DNA of 64,000 nucleotides, taken from sequence record CP053388.1. The stretch is one strand, 5' to 3'. Each line of letters opens with the position of its first letter. The stretch's first letter is position 1. A model generated the notes under the pieces. It did no database searches. It worked only from the letters and a program-made list of their open reading frames with translations, and was not told the DNA's origin. Made by a program: the position numbers and the translations under genes. This DNA is from Escherichia phage CMS-2020a. This document shows, one piece after another, positions 2,763 to 37,252 of this stretch.

Positions 2763-5700
2763 TTAGTTACGTTGAGTGTTTGGGTTGAGTGATCCGCCAG
2801 GGCGTTTCTCTTGAGCGATAGTCTCAAGCGCGATTGCTTTCATCCGTTGAGCGGCATTGTTCCATATGCTTTCTGTATCGCCGGATTCAGTTGTGCTACC
2901 GTCACTATGGACGTTGATCTCAATTGATACCGGAGAAAGAACATTTCCTCCTCCACTCATACCATCGGTACTGAGCGTTACAGGGATTGTTCGACCATCA
3001 GGCAATGGAACATACGCCTCATTCATATCGCCTTCCCCAAACAACGCCAATTGAGGTGAGTTGGCGATACCGCCTTTCTGGTATGCCCGGAGCGGGATCA
3101 CGCCGTCTTTTCCGAATATGCCACCATTTGCAAACTTCGGAATTGCAGGAATACCATTCGTGCCATCGGCAGCAGAACTGGTCAGATTGTTGAACCCGGA
3201 AGTTGAGCCAGAAGAACCGGACATCAATCCATCGAATCCACCACCAGCCCATACTGAAACCAAACCAGATGCAACTGTCGCGCCGAAATTCAACCACTTA
3301 TTACCAGAGCCGGAAGCATTAGCTCCAAGCATTGCAAACGCGGCAGACAGAGCGCCGGTAACAGAGCTGAGGTTCTGCATCGAGAAGATGGAGTCCTTCA
3401 CTGCTTTTGTCTCAGCATCTTTGGCTTCGGTGCTATCAAATAGCCCCGATACCCAGCTACCAATCGCATTTGTTGCTGTGCCAATTGCGCTGGTGGTCTG
3501 CTGTGTTGTTTGCCCCAATCCAGTTACCGAACTGGACGTCTCCTTCGTGGCTTCTCCTACCGACTTGTCGCCATTAACAGTGTTGCCCATTCGTACACCT
3601 TGATTGGCAACGGCAGAAGCAACTCCAGTGAGCAAATTGCCACTCTGTGAACTACCAGCTGCGGTGGTTCCCATCCCCAACATGTTCATTAGAGGCAGCG
3701 TGATTTGCGACTTCACGACCATATTGGTGATATCTTTCAAAATGGACTGAGATAGGCTGGAGAAGCTCATCTTCCCGTTAATAACGAAATCAGTCAGGAC
3801 ATCAGTTAAGCCACTAAACAAATCAGTCCAGGTGCTTTCGATCTGCTCTGCCAAGTTTTCGTATTCCAGTGCCAACTTCTGCGTCGCAGTCCCCGTCTCT
3901 TTAATAAGCGCGGTATTGCCAGCAGCAATCAGTTGATTGATTTTCTTTGTATAAAGCGCCACAACTTTAGGATCAGACGCCTTATCACGAAGTTCTATCA
4001 ACGCTTTGAGATTGCGGTTGTAGGTGTCTTCGAAATCAGCAACTTTCTCTTCGCGAGACGGCGTATAGCCAGCACTAATAATGGAATCCGCCTCCGGTGC
4101 CCAAGTGGAGATCATCTGCTCAACATTGCGGCGATTAAACATCTCGCGATATTCAGGTGTCGCATTTTTGAGGTCTTCAAGACGTTTTTTCGCCTTGTCG
4201 ATCATCTCTTGAGTGATGAACTCGTTAGGTACCGCATTAGCCAAATCTGTCAGCGATTTCGTTGTATCGCGAAGAGACTGATCAAACGATACCGTAGCCT
4301 TAGAGCTTTCACCCATTTGCCCCATAAGCTGATCAGCTTTGTCCAGAGCCTTCTGGTATCCGGCTGCCAGTTTCTGTTGCGCTGCCTGTTCCTTCTTGGC
4401 CGCACGCTGCGAGGCGTTAGCTGATCGTTGGGCTGCTTTCTCGGCAGCTGCTGCATCCTGTTCACGAGCTTTAGTAAGTGCGGCAATGGCTGCGGCACGC
4501 TCTTCATCGCTCATTTTCTCCAGAGAGCTGGCACTGGATGCTTTCTGCAAATTAAGCTGCGTCTTGAGTTGTTTAGGCCCAATAATCGGCTTACCTTCGA
4601 AGTCCATCATCGGAGTGCCGTCAGGCAAAGTACGCTGATAAGTCGCAGAATCCATCTGGTTTCGCATATATTGCGCCAACGCCTTCTGAGCAGCTTTATC
4701 AGTTGTACCTAACCCAAGAACAGTCCCCTGGTTTGACATTACGCCCTTACCAGTTTTGGCCGCGTTATCTCTCTCGAACTCTGCCTGAGTCAGCTCCTGA
4801 GCAACGGCTTCCAAATGCTCCTGATAACCACGAATACTGCCTTGCAGTTTCTGGATCTGCTCGGTATTTCCATCCTTTTTGGCTTTTTCAAGCTGATCAT
4901 TAAGAGTCGCAATTTGCTTCTCGGTCGCATTCTTACGAGAAGAAAGTGAATCAACCAGTTTTTGCGCAGGCTCCAGATAGCTTTTGTTTACCGTTTCACG
5001 TAACGGTGCCAATAGCTTGTTCTTTTCGTCATCTGAAAGTGAACCGTCATCATTGATTTTCTGGATCTTATCCAGAGCCTCTTGCCGGGCTTTCACGAAT
5101 GTTGCCGCGAAAATCTGGTTTTCCGCTCGAATTTTCTCAATCTGAGATTCGGCAGCCTCTTTAGCCAAACGCTTTGCTACAGCGCCGTCACCAAGAGCTA
5201 TCGTGCCGGTTATCTTTTGATACTCCTCCTGATTTTTTTTCAGGCGTGCTTCGATGTCAGCCTTCGACTCTTTGTGAGTAATAACACCGGCAGAGTTAGA
5301 TACGTAATTAACACCCTCACCAGTTTTTAATGCTCGTTGATCAGCAAGAATCTGCTTTTCGAGCTTTTCTGCGCGGTCGGCCATTTGTGCACGTTTGGCC
5401 GCTGTCATCGCTTCTGGTATTTTCCTAATCTCGTCAACGACCTTTGAAGTTTCGCTGCGGAGCATGGTCATGTACGTGATTAGGCCAGCAACAGCTACAG
5501 TGGCAACTGTAAATGCTGCCCCTATAGGGTTTGCTGCAATGAACGCCGTTAATCCAGCAAAAGCGCCTTTAAGCCCCGTAATCGCCCCACGGATGGCGAA
5601 AATAAGAGAGGGGATCGGAGCCAGCCCCATACGTGCCGCACGATTGAATCGAGTTACTGCTGTAGCGCCGAGGTTAAATGGAGTCTGTATGGCGGTCGCC

Positions 5701-10172: not shown

Positions 10173-10989
10173 TCATACGGTTGTTGATGTAACTGACCAG
10201 CAAGCGCCAGGTACTACGAGCCACATGCACGTTTGCAGCTTTACCGGTACGGTACATGTTGGTTGTTTCACCGATGGACTCTGACAAAATGCCATCCTCT
10301 CGTGCTGCGGCTACATCATTGCCATTTGCGATCTCACACGCTTCGTTGACAACGGCAAGCATCAACGCTTCTTTGAAGTAGTCAGGGAACTCTTCAAACT
10401 TCTCCTGCGTCATCTTTTCCCAATCGACTAAATCATGCCGGTACGCTCCATCTGCTCCCCACGGAATGTCATACACATTCAGCATATTTTGAGGGCGATC
10501 GTATCGGTCAAAGTCGATACGTAGAATTTTGCGGATTGAGAACGGTAAAGTTTTAATTCGTCTGGTAGCCTCAATGAGACGCTTGCGCATTAAGCCTTCA
10601 CCATCCGACAGCAAAGTGTCCCCATTCAGCATATCGATCGCCTGCATTTGAGCATCAGCGACAGTTGCAAACGACTGTTCTGGTATCGACAGTTCAAAAC
10701 TATTCAGCAGAACATACATTTGCCGCTCTTCATGCGTCAGACCCGATGCAACAGCCTTCACAATGACGTACCGCAGATCTCGCTCTTTCTCAGAGAGCTG
10801 GTTATATTCAGCCGACACGACAACCGGAATCGACATTTGACCGCTGGTAATTTCTAGCGGCTCGCCATCAACGAGAATAGCCCCGGTGCTGTCCTTTACT
10901 GTGTAGGTAGCAGATTCGATATCCAGCACGTTGAAGGCAAATGAAAGAGAAACAGCTTCACCGCTACGATACGAGTCGATCTGCGCCAT
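10156..10989 (-). CDS. Structural protein of unknown function
   Basis: 277 aa ORF coupled (ATGA overlap at 10989) to the upstream gene in the head module. Confidence 0.4.
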   Translation of the reverse strand: MAQIDSYRSGEAVSLSFAFNVLDIESATYTVKDSTGAILVDGEPLEITSGQMSIPVVVSAEYNQLSEKERDLRYVIVKAVASGLTHEERQMYVLLNSFELSIPEQSFATVADAQMQAIDMLNGDTLLSDGEGLMRKRLIEATRRIKTLPFSIRKILRIDFDRYDRPQNMLNVYDIPWGADGAYRHDLVDWEKMTQEKFEEFPDYFKEALMLAVVNEACEIANGNDVAAAREDGILSESIGETTNMYRTGKAANVHVARSTWRLLVSYINNRMIVRRA

Positions 10990-11423
10990 TACTCACCGCC
11001 TTGTGCTTTCAGGATGCCTTCAATCATCTCGACAATTCCTTTCGCTTTGACACCAACCTGATTACCAATAACTCGTAGACCGGCAATACCTTCGTTGTCT
11101 GCAATGGACTCCAGCTCTTCTCGTGTGAAAGCCTGGATCTGTTTGGCCGGTTCATCTGGTGTTCCACGTTTCATTGGCACAATGTCAGGCGCTGCTGGCT
11201 CGGTAATCAGGTCTGCTGTCAATTCACCACGATCACTGTATGCGGCAGACGGAGAAACATTTTTGCCCTCTACTGTTGACGCTCGCATTGAAGCACAAAT
11301 CCTCTGCTGATCGATAAAAGGCAACTCCGCTACGGATACCCCGTTCTCGAACTGAACGCCGCACAGCATTCCCGAATAACCGGAAAATTGCGGTTCTAAT
11401 AAAACAATTTTTGCTGGTTTCAT
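10989..11423 (-). CDS. Structural protein of unknown function (possible head-tail adaptor)
   Basis: 144 aa ORF downstream of the Ig-like protein gene. Confidence 0.4.
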   Translation of the reverse strand: MKPAKIVLLEPQFSGYSGMLCGVQFENGVSVAELPFIDQQRICASMRASTVEGKNVSPSAAYSDRGELTADLITEPAAPDIVPMKRGTPDEPAKQIQAFTREELESIADNEGIAGLRVIGNQVGVKAKGIVEMIEGILKAQGGE

Positions 11424-11467
11424 AACGCTTTCTCTCCTCTTGGGCGGCTTTCGCCGCCCAATGTCGG

Positions 11468-12388
11468 TTATTCCTGTGCGGCAGTGACCTCTACGGTCGC
11501 TGTCGCTTTGTGGCTACCATCTTGGGTAGTAACCTCGATTGTGGCAGTACCAGCCGCAACACCAGTTACAACACCGGTTTCGCTGTCCACCGTTGCAAAC
11601 TCGGTATTTTTAGATTCCCAAGTAACGGTTTTATTTGTGGCTCCTGCCGGCTCGACATTTGCGGTCAGCTGAACAGTTTTGTTTGCCTCAACGGTTGTGC
11701 TATTTGGGTCGATTCCGACGCCGGTAACAGCCACAACAGGCGCAGTTACTTCCACCGTTGCAGTTGCCTTTTTGCTGCCATCTTGGGAAACGATCTCAAT
11801 CGTCGCAGTGCCAACTTCTACACCAGTAACGTTCCCGCTCTGGTCTACCGTTGCCTTGTCTTCATTTTTGGAAGACCAGGTAACTGCCTTATTCGTCGCA
11901 TTTGACGGCTGAACATTCGCTTTCAGACTGACTGATTTCCCTTTCTCAACAGAGGTTGAGTCTGGCGTTACCGTTACGGATTTAACGGCTACCGGATTTA
12001 CGGTGACTTCCACTGACGCGGAAAGCTGGGTTTCCTGATCAGTTGCGGTAATTTTCACTTTGCCTGGGGCTACGCCAGTTACTAATCCAGTGCCGTTAAC
12101 GGTTGCAATTTGATCATTGGCTGACTTCCAGGTAAATGAACTGGCACTCTTACCCATACTAATACCTGCACTAAGTTGAACAGTTTTCCCAACCAAAACT
12201 GATGGTGAAGCCGGAGTTATGTTTACGGATTGGGAGAAGGGAACCGCCTGCAAACAAGCAGATAGCTGACTTTGTTGCCGCTCGGTTAAAGGTTCATCGG
12301 AGATAGAATTGGTAAATCCGGCGCGGCACATATGCCCCGTAAAATCCGAAAATGCCTCTTCCGTAATCTTCATCTTTTGTTCTGGCAT
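11468..12388 (-). CDS. Ig-like (Big_2) tandem-repeat protein, putative capsid decoration protein
   Basis: Three tandem about 90-aa repeats with the Big_2 pattern (KTVQLTANVEPAGATNKTVTWESKN...ATVD..G.VTGV..GTATI); directly downstream of the capsid gene. Confidence 0.65.
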   Translation of the reverse strand: MPEQKMKITEEAFSDFTGHMCRAGFTNSISDEPLTERQQSQLSACLQAVPFSQSVNITPASPSVLVGKTVQLSAGISMGKSASSFTWKSANDQIATVNGTGLVTGVAPGKVKITATDQETQLSASVEVTVNPVAVKSVTVTPDSTSVEKGKSVSLKANVQPSNATNKAVTWSSKNEDKATVDQSGNVTGVEVGTATIEIVSQDGSKKATATVEVTAPVVAVTGVGIDPNSTTVEANKTVQLTANVEPAGATNKTVTWESKNTEFATVDSETGVVTGVAAGTATIEVTTQDGSHKATATVEVTAAQE

Positions 12389-28516: not shown

Positions 28517-28828
28517 TCAGGCTATTGCCATCACTGATGCTCTCTGAATCTCTTGCTGGGCCACGCGGTTAACTTCCATCAAAGCCAGTTCGAGCTGATG
28601 TTCCGGCCACATTCTTTGAAATGCCACCCAGCCTTTTCCACGCTGGCGACGAACATTCATTACATAACGAGTAAAGGTGTTTTTATCGAAAGACACCGCT
28701 GTTTCACGGAACAGACGAATAGAGGTTCCATTGGCAACGATGTCCAGCAAAGTTAATTGAGCAACCAGCGCAGGCTTCTCTTTTCTCTTCTGGTCTTTGT
28801 CCAGACCAAGAACCAATGATTTTTTCAT
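28517..28828 (-). CDS. Hypothetical protein (start adjusted to MKKSLVLGL)
   Basis: RBS GGAG 7 nt before ATG at 28828; motif A at 28840-28854 immediately upstream. Confidence 0.5.
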   Translation of the reverse strand: MKKSLVLGLDKDQKRKEKPALVAQLTLLDIVANGTSIRLFRETAVSFDKNTFTRYVMNVRRQRGKGWVAFQRMWPEHQLELALMEVNRVAQQEIQRASVMAIA

Positions 28829-32105: not shown

Positions 32106-34139
32106 TTACTTAACTTGGTGGCCTGGTTTAGCACCAGCATCCGGGCTTAACAGGAAGATATCTTTTCCGCCAGGGCCAGCAGCCATCACCATGCCTTCGG
32201 AGATACCGAAGCGCATTTTACGCGGTGCCAGGTTAGCCACCATAATGGTGTGACGACCAATCAGTGCCTGTGGATCTGGATAAGCGGAACGAATGCCTGA
32301 GAAGACATTACGTTTTTCTCCGCCGAGATCCAGTGTCAGGCGCAGCAGTTTGTCAGAACCTTCGACAAACTCCGCGTTTTCAATCAGCGCCACACGCAGG
32401 TCAACTTTGGCGAAGTCGTCAAAGGTGATGGTTTCCTGAATCGGGGCGTCAGCCAGTGGGCCAGTTACCGGTGCAGCTGTGGCTTTCACTTCTTCTTTGG
32501 ATGCTTCCACCAGTGCTTCCACCTGTTTCATATCGATACGGTTATACAGTGCCTTGAACGGATTCACTTTATGGCCCAGCAGCGGTTGCTGGATACCATC
32601 CCAGGTCAGTTCTGTATTCAGGAATGCTTCTGCACGTTCAGTCAGTTTCGGCAGTACCGGTTTCAGGTACGTCATCAGCACGCGGAACAGGTTAATGCCC
32701 ATAGAGCAAATCGCCTGCAGATCGGCATCGCGTCCTTCCTGCTTCGCCACCACCCACGGAGCCTGTTCATCAACATAGCGGTTAGCCAGGTCAGCCAGTG
32801 CCATGATTTCACGGATAGCTTTGCCAAATTCGCGGCTTTCCCATGCTTCGCCAATCACTTCAGCGGCATCAGTAAAGGTTTTGTACAGTTGCGGGTCAGC
32901 CAGTTCGCTTGCCAGCACGCCGTCAAAACGCTTGTTGATAAAGCCTGCATTACGGGAGGCCAGGTTAACCACTTTGTTCACGATATCGGCATTCACGCGC
33001 TGAACGAAATCTTCCAGGTTGAGATCGATATCATCAATGCGCGAAGAGAGTTTCGCAGTGTAGTAGTAACGCAGGCTGTCGGCGTCAAAATGATTCAGCC
33101 AGGTGCTGGCTTTAATAAAGGTGCCGCGAGACTTGGACATCTTCGCACCGTTCACCGTCACATAGCCATGAACAAACAGGTTGGTCGGCTTGCGGAAGTT
33201 GCTGCCTTCTAGCATGGCAGGCCAGAACAGGCTGTGGAAGTAAACGATATCTTTGCCGATGAAGTGGTACAGCTCGGCGGTGGAGTCTTTCTTCCAGTAT
33301 TCGTCGAAGCTGGTAGTGTCGCCGCGTTTGTCGCACAGATTCTTGAAGGAACCCATGTAGCCAATCGGCGCGTCCAGCCAGACGTAGAAGTATTTGCCCG
33401 GTGCGTTCGGAATTTCAAAACCGAAGTAAGGTGCGTCACGGGAGATATCCCACTGTTGCAGGCCAGATTCAAACCACTCCTGCATTTTGTTTGCCACCTG
33501 CTCCTGCAACGCACCGCTGCGGGTCCATGCCTGCAACATTTCGCTGAAAGAAGGCAGATCAAAGAAGAAGTGTTCGGAATCACGCATTACCGGTGTAGCG
33601 CCAGAAACTACCGATTTCGGCTCGATCAGTTCCGTCGGGCTGTATGTCGCGCCGCAGACTTCACAGTTATCGCCGTATTGATCCGGCGCTTTACATTTCG
33701 GGCATGTGCCTTTTACAAAACGGTCCGGCAGGAACATGCCTTTTTCCGGGTCGTACAGCTGAGAGATGGTGCGGTTTTTAATAAAACCGTTCTCTTTCAG
33801 GCGAGTGTAGATAAGCTCGGACAACTGACGGTTCTCTTCGCTGTGCGTCGAGTGATAGTTGTCATAGCTGATGTTAAAGCCTGCGAAATCAGTCTGATGT
33901 TCCTGACTCATTTCGCCAATCATCTGCTCCGGTGTGATACCAAGCTGCTGTGCTTTCAGCATGATCGGCGTACCGTGGGCATCGTCGGCACAGATGAAAT
34001 TAACCTCGTGGCCGCGCATTCGCTGGTAACGAACCCAGACATCAGCCTGGATGTGCTCCAGCATATGGCCGAGGTGGATTGAGCCGTTAGCGTACGGCAG
34101 CGCGCACGTCACCAGAATTTTCTTCGCGACTTGGGTCAT
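32106..34139 (-). CDS. metG: Methionyl-tRNA synthetase
   Basis: 677 aa from [29 protein letters not shown] (HIGH motif) through KMSKS to the C-terminal dimerisation/tRNA-binding domain; matches E. coli MetG nearly residue for residue from memory. The track ORF (to 34268) adds a spurious 43-aa extension. Confidence 0.95.
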
Positions 34140-34296
34140 AGTAGGCATTACTTCTTTGTAGTGAAAAGGGGCTTGATAGTAACAAAATGGCCTTATGTCT
34201 GCCATGTGATAACAGCATTTCTCATAAATGATTAAATGTCGTAGCTGGAGTACACTACAAGGCGACAATTGCGCAAATTAAAATAAAGGAGACGGG

Positions 34297-35397
34297 ATGA
34301 GCGAGTCCAAATCGCCGGATGCCCTGAGAGCAATGGTAGCCGGTACGCTGGCTAATTTTCAGCACCCAACCCTGAAACACAACCTGACTACGCTTAAAGC
34401 GTTACACCATGTTGCGTTGATGGATGACACACTGCATGTCGAACTAATCATGCCTTTCGTGTGGAATAAGCCTTTTGAAGACCTGAAAGAGCAATGTAGT
34501 GGTGATCTGCTCCGTATCACTGGCGCAAAGGCTATTGACTGGAAGCTGTCGTACAACATTGCCACGCTTAAGCGTGTCAAAAACCAACCAGGCATTAATG
34601 GCGTTAAGAACATTATCGCCGTCAGCTCAGGCAAGGGCGGCGTGGGTAAATCCTCCACGGCGGTAAACCTGGCACTGGCGTTGGCTGCTGAAGGTGCGAA
34701 AGTTGGTATTTTGGATGCCGATATCTATGGTCCATCAATTCCAACCATGCTGGGCGCGGAAAACCAACGTCCAACCTCACCTGACGGTACTCACATGGCA
34801 CCTATCATGTCTCATGGCCTGGCAACCAACTCTATTGGTTATCTGGTCACCGACGACAATGCAATGGTGTGGCGTGGACCGATGGCCAGCAAGGCGCTGA
34901 TGCAGATGTTGCAGGAAACATTGTGGCCTGATCTGGACTATCTTGTTCTCGATATGCCGCCGGGCACTGGTGATATTCAGTTGACGCTGGCGCAGAACAT
35001 TCCTGTAACTGGTGCTGTTGTGGTAACTACGCCGCAAGACATCGCGCTGATCGATGCGAAGAAAGGCATTGTGATGTTCGAAAAAGTCGAAGTGCCGGTA
35101 CTGGGTATCGTTGAAAACATGAGTGTGCATATTTGCAGTAACTGCGGTCATCACGAGCCAATTTTTGGCACCGGTGGCGCACAGAAACTGGCCGAGAAAT
35201 ACAACACGCAGTTGTTAGGCCAAATGCCACTTCATATCTCTCTTCGTGAAGATCTGGATAACGGAACACCAACCGTTATTAGTCGTCCAGATAGCGAATT
35301 TACAGCTATTTATCGTGACCTCGCAGATCGCGTTGCCGCCCAAATGTATTGGCAAGGTGAAGTAATACCTGGCGAAATCGCATTCCGCGCAGTGTGA
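34297..35397 (+). CDS. apbC: Fe-S cluster carrier ATPase ApbC/Mrp
   Basis: Deviant Walker A SGKGGVGKSSTAVNLA, CxxC motif (ICSNCGHH); divergent from metG exactly as in the E. coli mrp-metG locus. Confidence 0.9.
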   Translation: MSESKSPDALRAMVAGTLANFQHPTLKHNLTTLKALHHVALMDDTLHVELIMPFVWNKPFEDLKEQCSGDLLRITGAKAIDWKLSYNIATLKRVKNQPGINGVKNIIAVSSGKGGVGKSSTAVNLALALAAEGAKVGILDADIYGPSIPTMLGAENQRPTSPDGTHMAPIMSHGLATNSIGYLVTDDNAMVWRGPMASKALMQMLQETLWPDLDYLVLDMPPGTGDIQLTLAQNIPVTGAVVVTTPQDIALIDAKKGIVMFEKVEVPVLGIVENMSVHICSNCGHHEPIFGTGGAQKLAEKYNTQLLGQMPLHISLREDLDNGTPTVISRPDSEFTAIYRDLADRVAAQMYWQGEVIPGEIAFRAV

Positions 35398-35423
35398 TAA
35401 AAAGGCGGTGCATTGCACCGCCT
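35395..35423 (-). terminator. Terminator hairpin between apbC and the UmuD'-like gene
   Basis: Palindrome aggcggtgcattgcaccgcct; minus-strand reading is followed by tttttatca. Confidence 0.55.
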
Positions 35424-35434
35424 AATCAGTTCTC

Positions 35435-35824
35435 CTACATCACGGGACAATCATCAAACTCGCCACTTCTTGCGTCGTTGATAATGTGAGTGATCACACC
35501 AAACACGGCATTGCTGCCCGTGCATCCATCGTCATCCTTTGGCAATGCTTCCTTCTTACCGGTTCTTAAATCCTCCAGATGCTGACGTGGGTACTTCCGG
35601 TATCTTTTTACGCGATATTCCCCATCCAGAGCGCATACAAGCAGAGAACCATCAACCGGGGTAAGTGAGGAATCGACCACCAGCAATGCACCCTGTAATA
35701 TTCCCTCACGATGATGACTATCAGCTGCCCTCATGAAGTAGGTCGCTGAAGGATGTCTAATTATCTGCTGATCAAGAGAAATACGGCTCTCAACATAATC
35801 CGCCGCAGGAGAAGGGAAGCCCAT
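35435..35824 (-). CDS. umuD: UmuD'-like protein (pre-truncated UmuD analog, P1 HumD-like)
   Basis: Starts MGFPSPAADYVE, i.e. at the Gly after the UmuD Cys-Gly cleavage site; Ser and Lys of the catalytic dyad conserved in alignment; LexA box immediately upstream. Confidence 0.8.
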   Translation of the reverse strand: MGFPSPAADYVESRISLDQQIIRHPSATYFMRAADSHHREGILQGALLVVDSSLTPVDGSLLVCALDGEYRVKRYRKYPRQHLEDLRTGKKEALPKDDDGCTGSNAVFGVITHIINDARSGEFDDCPVM

Positions 35825-35840
35825 AATACTCGCCTCTTAA

Positions 35841-35860
35841 TACTGTATACACATACAGTA
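35841..35860. promoter_or_regulatory. LexA (SOS) box
   Basis: TACTGTATACACATACAGTA = CTGT-N8-ACAG palindrome, 17 bp upstream of the UmuD'-like start codon. Confidence 0.8.
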
Positions 35861-36180
35861 TATATTGAAGCTATATATTTTTGAACTCTATCTCTTAAAA
35901 AAGATGTTAATAAGATGCTAACTATTGAAAGGCATAAATATATACAATTCAAACAAACGTTATTTTTAACAAATTTTTTCTTCCCATTGACTTTTTCGAA
36001 CGCCTTGTCCGGTCTAAAGTGCGCAGAAGTCACTTTTTCCTTCCTGAGTTATCCACAGGCTTATGCACTTGCATGAAAAATCTATTCACACTATCTTAAT
36101 TCGCAAGACACTGATGTTGCAGTATTGAGGGTATGTTGGGTTAAAAATAGACATTAAAAAGCCCAGTTGACTAGGCTGGG

Positions 36181-36212
36181 CTTTTTAAAAGGAAACAGAG
36201 TTTGCGGCTCTG
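36181..36212 (+). terminator. Rho-independent terminator (plus orientation) in the AT-rich non-coding region
   Basis: Hairpin agcccagttgactaggctgggct followed by ttttt. Confidence 0.5.
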
Positions 36213-36582
36213 TTCCTGAGCCATAAGTATCTGGCGACTGAGCTAAGATTAACCGAATGTACTGGATTCATCAAGAAACGTTGAGTGGTCATACTAGGTA
36301 ATAATGACCATTTACTAAACATCGTTGTTCTCAAAGAAGATTTAAGTCCAGGTTTTTGGTGACTCTAAAACCTTACCTTAACTCGAAATCGTGCCGTAAG
36401 TATCTGGCGACTACAGATATTGCAACTGCAAAGGCAAGCTCAAAGGTATTTGCAGCTAGGTGCGATAAAACTAAGTGAGGCCTATAGTGCTTAACTTACT
36501 TTTCAAAATCGTGCCGCCTATGTTCGCAATCATCGAAGCGATCATTGAGTACGTCAACCAGCGCCCATAATGCTAGTTGTTA

Positions 36583-36612
36583 CCGGCCCCATCCAAATGG
36601 GGCCATTTTATT
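36583..36612 (+). terminator. Rho-independent terminator (plus orientation)
   Basis: Hairpin ggccccatccaaatggggcc followed by attttatt. Confidence 0.45.
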
Positions 36613-36619
36613 GTATTGA

Positions 36620-37252
36620 CTACATACTTTCTGATCTAATTGAGTTGTTCACTGCTCTGGCAATCTTCTCCCGCAATTGCTGCGCTCCGTGGTACTGAAC
36701 CGCAATATCCCGCAACTCGTTCACCAGTTCTCTAATCTGGTGATCTTTAAGCTCATTATTTGGGTGATGGGTAACAACTCTGGTTAATTCACCCTTGTCT
36801 TTTGCTCTTACGTATGCAGCTCTTGTGCATTCGACCCATGTATTACCGCCTACATTAACTTCGTAGATTAGGCTGGACTTATCTGTCAATTCGGAACAAA
36901 TACGGGCCGTGGTCTGGCAACTAGAGCATTCGCAGTTATCGCGGAAACCGTGATCTACCGGTCGAGAAAGAGGTTTAACTTTTTCATCCAACTTCATCAC
37001 AGCATCGTGATAAGCGTTCCAGCCGTCATCTTTACCAAGTTGATAAATCTCTGAAGGCTCCATGTAGTCTATATCGCAACCTTCTTCATCCGATCTATCT
37101 GGTCGCTTCCCTGGTAATCGCTCATAAAAACGTTTTCTGTCTCGACGTTCGGCTCTCAGAGCTAACGCAAGAAGTTGCTCAAGCGAGGTATTTGCACCAG
37201 CAATAATTTCATTGAGAATATCTTCTGTGAGATCTTTCGCTACCGTGCTCAT
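36620..37252 (-). CDS. Hypothetical protein
   Basis: 210 aa ORF coupled to the upstream gene. Confidence 0.5.
   Translation of the reverse strand: MSTVAKDLTEDILNEIIAGANTSLEQLLALALRAERRDRKRFYERLPGKRPDRSDEEGCDIDYMEPSEIYQLGKDDGWNAYHDAVMKLDEKVKPLSRPVDHGFRDNCECSSCQTTARICSELTDKSSLIYEVNVGGNTWVECTRAAYVRAKDKGELTRVVTHHPNNELKDHQIRELVNELRDIAVQYHGAQQLREKIARAVNNSIRSESM

Follow-up and report, generated by a model that had tools for sequence, protein, structure and literature searches.

An ordinary copy of the probably LexA-controlled humD gene on an SSU5-like phage-plasmid of Escherichia coli

The window analyzed here, a stretch of DNA of 64,000 nucleotides, carries at 35435-35824 a probably LexA-controlled HumD gene on a phage-plasmid, and this is an ordinary, already catalogued copy. 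The gene and the elements placed around it are listed below.

35435..35824, minus strand: humD coding sequence, 129 amino acids plus stop, ATG start, encoding a UmuD'-like S24-domain protein
35833..35838, minus strand: Shine-Dalgarno-like AAGAGG, 8 nt 5' of the humD ATG, read directly from the sequence
35860..35841, minus-strand reading: predicted LexA operator (SOS box) TACTGTATGTGTATACAGTA, a palindrome with a perfect CTGT-N8-ACAG and TA flanks
35857..35885, minus strand: sigma-70 promoter-like site, -35 TTCAAA at 35885-35880, 17-nt spacer, -10 TATACT at 35862-35857
35403..35423, minus strand: intrinsic terminator-like hairpin of 9 pairs, 7 of them G-C, with a T-run, 12 nt 3' of the humD stop
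about 35435-35480 and 35510-35570: DNA of the HumD tail and insertion residues (about 116-129 and 86-105)

The predicted terminator sits between humD and the convergent apbC (34297-35397, plus strand), and from the layout of its predicted promoter, operator, coding sequence, and terminator, humD is most simply read as a self-contained unit.

The protein, which begins MGFPSPAADYVESRISLDQQ... in the translation of the minus-strand open reading frame (the N-terminal stretch is also given as MGFPSPAADYVESRISLDQQIIRHPSATYFMRAADSHHREG...), matches the NCBIfam HumD equivalog NF051876 over its whole length, residues 1-129 falling on positions 1-129 of the 129-position profile, and reaches 221.7 bits (cutoff 120; E=2.2e-66). 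The more general Pfam Peptidase_S24 model (PF00717) matches with 38 bits against a cutoff of 23.3. HumD of phage P7 is identical at 120 of 129 positions (93%), and CYRAN_98 of the phage-plasmid Cyrano (pLF82) at 128 of 129. The same protein on a plasmid that is 99.4% identical bears the RefSeq name "HumD family translesion DNA polymerase." The preliminary description had called the gene a UmuD' analogue like that of P1, and the full-length equivalog match and the identity to P7 HumD bear this out. The identification is correct, yet the family is already known and named and the gene lies in a known class of element, so that it is not new. In a single pairwise comparison between the window and P7 genes, dN/dS was 0.044 with a dS of 0.80, and on this ratio the codon sequence is under strong purifying selection.

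Two other assignments were tried and rejected. A full-length, autocleaving UmuD is contradicted by the NCBIfam UmuD subfamily model (PRK10276), which gives 88 bits, below its cutoff of 110, as well as by a pro-segment that is impossible here and by the missing umuC. A repressor of the LexA/CI type is contradicted by the length of the protein, 129 amino acids being the S24 domain alone with no N-terminal DNA-binding domain; the LexA model, whose cutoff is 110.95, reaches 28.5 bits, in a match confined to the C-terminal domain.

HumD starts M-GFPSPAADYVE. In the alignments to solved structure chains its Gly2 falls on residue 1 of UmuD' (1umu), the best match among solved structures (E=1.7e-23), and on residue 25 of full-length UmuD (8gmt_B), that is, on Gly25 of E. 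coli UmuD. The M-GFPSP start, at position 2, is common to 106 of 120 database homologs. The Shine-Dalgarno-like AAGAGG is overlapped by an in-frame TAA at 35837-35839, and because this stop lies only five codons 5' of the ATG, translation from further upstream could not yield a full-length UmuD. The claim that the protein begins at the glycine following the UmuD autocleavage site, made earlier from the sequence alone, is thus upheld by the alignment to the UmuD and UmuD' chains, by the start shared across homologs, and by the exclusion of an in-frame upstream start.

The Ser/Lys dyad is present, with Ser36 and Lys73 of HumD aligned to Ser60 and Lys97 of UmuD, the positions predicted to be catalytic. 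Across 121 family sequences the serine column holds Ser in 75, Thr in 44, and Ala in 2, and the lysine column is nearly invariant. Loss of the dyad would in any case not speak against a UmuD'-like role, because a protein made in truncated form needs no self-cleavage. The active-site motif departs from that of UmuD, GDSM having become ADSH with one residue deleted. Two further segments have no counterpart in UmuD': an insertion of about 10 to 20 residues ahead of the last strand (residues ∼86-105) and a 14-residue C-terminal extension (∼116-129). The latter ends in an acidic tail, EFDDCPV(M), whose core is invariant or nearly so across the family and whose last residue is hydrophobic (M, I, or L). 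In the AlphaFold model (mean pLDDT of 68.9) the beta-core is confident, whereas the N-terminal arm and the insertion score below 50 and the tail averages ∼52. The insertion and the invariant tail hint that HumD may make extra or different interactions compared with UmuD', and the departures from UmuD' would allow a modulatory or recruitment role.

The tail, E-F-D-D-C-P-V-M/I/L, resembles the C-terminal tip of SSB, D-F-D-D-D-I-P-F. It could conceivably dock HumD, or HumD with UmuC, on replisome or repair proteins that bind the SSB tail, or on the RecA or DnaE of the phage-plasmid, although we regard this as quite unlikely. If it were true, mobile elements would gain a distinct damage-tolerance pathway that serves the element.

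A perfect LexA box had also been claimed upstream of the gene. This claim now rests on a test with the 20-mer consensus and on footprinting across the family, which replace the loose 16-mer pattern: CTGT-N8-ACAG occurs 2 times in 64 kb against 0.93 expected, which is not significant alone, and the second of these matches, at 28699, has 11 mismatches to the 20-nt LexA consensus. The operator TACTGTATGTGTATACAGTA agrees with the consensus TACTGTATATATATACAGTA at 18 of 20 positions, and the 20-mer search, which allowed up to 3 mismatches, gave 1 match in 64 kb (with 2 mismatches) where 0.01 would be expected. The box is kept between the window and P7 while the flanks diverge, and the P7 GenBank record AF503408 annotates the homologous site as a protein_bind feature, "LexA; regulation of humD expression." On consensus, conservation, and annotation in P7, the box stands as described. 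Promoter-like matches in the humD region number 3 against 2.7 expected, so that the sigma-70 site is a consensus match and not significant alone; the call is plausible because of its position relative to the operator, the -10 TATACT and the expected transcription start lying inside or adjoining the predicted LexA box.

Upstream of the predicted promoter, a 190-nt block (35887-36076) is ∼85% identical to the upf91.7/upf91.6 region of P7 (locus L002, 5954-6143), with a substitution pattern that is not coding-like. It contains a perfect DnaA-box 9-mer, TTATCCACA, at 36049-36057, which is kept in P7. A minus-strand open reading frame of 90 amino acids (36033..35761), which runs through the operator and is partly common to P7 upf91.7, was rejected as a gene: its substitutions relative to P7 are distributed 7/11/11 by codon position, with no third-position bias and with many amino-acid changes.

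For the family-wide survey, 151 loci were fetched from genomes and viral contigs, 121 of which encode a full-length relative. The strict CTGT-N8-ACAG was found in 58 of 96 distinct 100-nt upstream regions, compared to 0 of 179 control windows drawn from the same loci, and a box with at most one core mismatch in 71 of 96 compared to 4 of 179. The box starts 32 to 37 nt 5' of the ATG in every P1-like or SSU5-like copy and in most box-bearing loci, and this spacing is also seen in chromosomal and prophage clades whose proteins are 51 to 70% identical and whose surrounding sequence is unrelated; in two loci the box lies at a greater distance, 39 to 63 nt. Most boxless loci have a conserved open reading frame of ∼79 amino acids upstream (L007, L155, L011, L033, L045, L036, L016, and L018, in each immediately 5' of the humD match at position ∼4001), with the motif MPRR.DIE.AF...NRTF.LFNPNGG, forming a two-gene operon with humD in prophages. 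The stop of this frame lies directly against the humD ATG or runs into it by a few bases, and any control at such loci would therefore lie further upstream. A Pfam search with this ∼79-aa product gave no significant match.

In one group of loci (L076, L077, and L080, and phages CMS-2020a and PhiR41_1), HumD is 98 to 99% identical to that of the window but the upstream region is of the P1 type, with the box CTGTATGGATAAACAG 36 nt from the ATG. The similarity of this group to the window at 35825-35870 breaks exactly at the start codon, a pattern that indicates probable recombination between P1-type and SSU5-type humD cassettes.

Expression data are available for the Cyrano ortholog, whose operator is the same as in the window and whose humD promoter region departs from that of the window by one substitution over 101 nt. 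They come from Supplementary Table S1 of PMC9928086, a reanalysis of GSE154648 reported in log2 units, in the rows for CYRAN_74-123. In these rows, the values for CYRAN_98 are 7.44 and 6.94 in LB; 9.56 and 9.89 at 1 h and 9.14 and 9.03 at 6 h for bacteria alone; and 11.37 and 11.30 at 1 h and 12.12 and 12.31 at 6 h inside macrophages (PMC9928086). In these LF82 transcriptomes expression is thus ∼30-fold higher in macrophages than in LB, which places CYRAN_98 among the most strongly macrophage-induced genes within CYRAN_74-123, and it is already up ∼4- to 6-fold in the medium controls with bacteria alone. Its neighbors in the same rows are flat, the apbC-like gene at ∼6 (about 5.9) and metG at ∼3 (about 3.1) (PMC9928086). 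Macrophages are a genotoxic, SOS-inducing environment (PMC9928086). Repression appears to be leaky, because in LB the gene has 148 normalized counts compared to a median of 9.8 for Cyrano, ∼15 times background. The pattern fits an independently regulated, SOS-responsive unit; it is correlative, and other stresses act in macrophages.

The absence of a umuC partner, also claimed at the outset, holds at every scale searched. A tblastn search with E. coli UmuC gave no match in the window or in the closest plasmid; no Y-family polymerase appears in the complete annotation of that 112-kb plasmid; and none of the HumD-family loci examined has a umuC within 4 kb. The only UmuC homologs seen in the survey adjoin its two most distant hits, both of them genuine umuDC operons, one in a Pseudomonas and one in a Chitinophagaceae genome.

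The host element is an SSU5-like E. coli phage-plasmid of the pECOH89/pLF82/Cyrano type. E. coli plasmids of ∼110 kb from the pECOH89/pLF82 group are collinear with the window, 59,183 of its 64,000 bases aligning at 96.5 to 99.6% identity. Besides RepB and ParB, these plasmids encode siphovirus structural proteins and many proteins of DNA metabolism, and they are SSU5-like phage-like plasmids (PMC3999498; PMC9928086). The phage-plasmid NZ_JBSTRI010000003.1 has DnaE (Pol III alpha) and RecA homologs of its own, at 3194-5557 and 10477-11550 (locus L003), and also encodes a ligase, NrdAB, ThyA, and DfrA51. DnaE, RecA, and the other DNA-metabolism proteins of the phage-plasmid are potentially relevant as partners of HumD. 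On the same plasmid, the closest to the window, we observed a second strong LexA box, TACTGTTTACTTATACAGTA, with 3 mismatches (∼109436-109455; locus L004, 45937-45956). It lies ∼27 nt 5' of a gene for a tyrosine-type recombinase/integrase, which suggests that this enzyme may be a second SOS-controlled function of the element.

Downstream of humD, the metG-apbC block (32106-35397 of the window) is collinear with and ∼90% identical to the chromosomal metG-apbC of E. coli, and among complete E. coli genomes it occurs at 222 places on plasmids. The Cyrano copy of apbC is a moron expressed in the lysogen, while metG is near background (PMC9928086). The block looks like a piece of host DNA that was captured and now borders the humD cassette.

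On the other side of humD lies a 760-bp gap that is unannotated in 98 of 98 plasmid records and in phage Cyrano. It holds, at 36150-36610, the following elements.

about 36240 to 36153, minus strand: sRNA-like element with a single-stranded 5' end and two hairpins, the second a terminator
36220-36239 and 36393-36412: 20-nt direct repeat, matching at 19 of 20 positions
36487-36570, plus strand: 27-codon open reading frame with a GAGG Shine-Dalgarno and its own terminator at 36585-36604

The sRNA-like element has a fold z-score of -4.65, and the repeat makes its 5' end complementary at 19 of 20 positions to a plus-strand transcript, in the 5' UTR ∼75 nt upstream of the 27-codon open reading frame. 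A search of 35300-36700 against Rfam gave nothing at the gathering score; the best match, AgrB, reached 27.6 bits against 40 and is a full-length weak match on the sRNA-like element. The open reading frame would encode a hydrophobic peptide, M-LNLLFKIVPPMFAIIEAIIEYVNQRP, for which Pfam and NCBIfam searches (27/31 amino acids) gave no significant match. Among SSU5-like relatives its start alternates between GTG and ATG, and 6 of 8 in-frame substitutions are synonymous third-position changes, a pattern that supports its probably being coding.

Divergent copies of the module, 69 to 82% identical, on plasmids of Kosakonia, Citrobacter, and Enterobacter keep all parts. Compensatory changes occur in both sRNA hairpins, where 4 of 28 pairs differ on both sides among 6 sequences, the two repeat copies vary in concert, and a homologous peptide is kept, encoded in these copies after a second small hydrophobic open reading frame. 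With its putative toxin and predicted sRNA, the module resembles a type I toxin-antitoxin locus, its layout being like that of the divergently encoded pairs dinQ/agrB, tisB/istR-1, and zorO/orzO. No strict LexA box is found inside 36150-36610 and the module is unlinked to humD in the divergent loci; it is treated here as an independent neighboring module.

Taking these observations together, we consider it probable that humD encodes a LexA-repressed, ready-made UmuD' analogue that serves Pol V-like translesion synthesis in cells carrying the element. From what is known of P1 HumD, we infer that LexA would bind at 35841-35860 and that UmuC would be the partner, and the benefit to the phage-plasmid belongs to the same inference. 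In undamaged cells, host LexA would sit on the operator over the -10 and the transcription start, keeping humD expression low. DNA damage would activate RecA, LexA would cleave itself, and humD would be transcribed. Since HumD would be made directly in the "cleaved" form, the slow RecA-mediated conversion of UmuD to UmuD' would be skipped, and the protein, once dimerized, may join host UmuC and RecA in a Pol V-like translesion polymerase, as suggested by the analogy with P1 HumD, resulting in more damage tolerance and mutagenesis in element-carrying cells. P1 HumD reportedly complemented well only if overexpressed and weakly at low copy, and for this reason the physiological partner of HumD and its benefit are uncertain. 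Only for the P1 protein is it known that HumD can stand in for UmuD' in function, in SOS mutagenesis and in binding to UmuC and RecA filaments. The P1 gene is LexA-regulated (PMC9603915).

HumD could also be SOS-induced and yet act mainly as a modulator rather than as a polymerase activator, an alternative that we consider unlikely. It would then form heterodimers with host UmuD or UmuD', or titrate partners such as UmuC, RecA filaments, or replisome or SSB-interacting proteins by means of its specific tail, and the outcome would be an altered host UmuD2C checkpoint or protected replication of the multicopy phage-plasmid. The invariant EFDDCPV tail and the insertion missing from UmuD', both low-confidence and flexible in the model, would suit such a role, as would an element that brings its own RecA and DnaE alpha. 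The Ser/Thr position and the near-invariant Lys73, kept although self-cleavage is unnecessary, point the same way, and so does the weak low-copy complementation said to have been seen with P1 HumD. The core of the protein is nevertheless clearly UmuD'-like (E of ∼1e-23), and the analysis gave no sign of an inhibitory role. The P1 study, moreover, as its title states, presents HumD as a functional UmuD' homolog that facilitates SOS mutagenesis (McLenigan et al. 1999).

It is very improbable that the LexA-like palindrome is not operative and that humD answers to another stress or phage-cycle regulator, with the rise in macrophages reflecting derepression or copy number. Cyrano itself is induced by genotoxic stress (PMC9928086), CYRAN_98 rises somewhat in the medium-only controls, and the promoter prediction is weak, all of which would agree with this. 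A change in copy number or a global derepression is argued against because neighboring Cyrano genes do not rise in parallel, apbC, metG, and most Cyrano lytic genes failing to follow CYRAN_98 in the rows for CYRAN_74-123. The operator, in addition, is held at a fixed distance in lineages with unrelated flanks, and the strict box is absent from all 179 control windows. That the gene is a functionless, decaying remnant of a truncated umuD hitchhiking on mobile elements is barely credible: the missing UmuD N terminus and umuC partner are what such a remnant would show, but the low dN/dS, the hundreds of homologs with the same start, length, and invariant residues, the dedicated conserved operator, and the strongly regulated transcription of the Cyrano ortholog speak against it, and conservation and expression together all but refute this reading. 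A LexA-repressed UmuD' analogue remains our preferred reading.

SSU5-like phage-plasmids, on which CTX-M-15 is commonly carried in clinical E. coli, thus hold the same SOS-wired UmuD' analogue as P1. The macrophage induction of the humD ortholog is relevant to stress-induced mutagenesis in plasmid-bearing pathogens and extends known biology. As a lead for new biology, the unannotated sRNA/peptide module is more novel and more promising than humD.

Compared with known systems, CYRAN_98 of Cyrano is essentially the same gene, identical at 128 of 129 residues, with an identical operator and the same neighbors; it differs in nothing of substance, and its annotation does not use the HumD name. E. 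coli UmuD/UmuD', the accessory subunit of Pol V (PDB 1umu, 1i4v, and 8gmt), shares the S24 fold and the Ser/Lys positions, and probably also the LexA control of the gene; the N terminus of HumD is exactly the postcleavage N terminus of UmuD'. UmuD differs in having a 24-residue pro-segment, a cleavage site (Cys24-Gly25), and umuC in the operon, all of which HumD lacks, whereas UmuD' has GDSM intact and neither the insertion nor the 14-residue EFDDCPV(M) extension. HumD of P1 and P7 (McLenigan et al. 1999; P7 record AF503408) is closest among the named systems in its 129 amino acids, 93% identity, M-GFPSP start, LexA box ∼35 nt upstream, lack of umuC, and phage-plasmid carrier. The carriers differ, a P1-like myovirus there and an SSU5-like siphovirus phage-plasmid here, and the flanks are unrelated, with phd-doc as neighbors (downstream in P7) against apbC-metG downstream and the sRNA/peptide module upstream in the window. 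What the P1/P7-type phages and the window share is only the cassette from the open reading frame to ∼10 nt past the operator, at ∼86% DNA identity.
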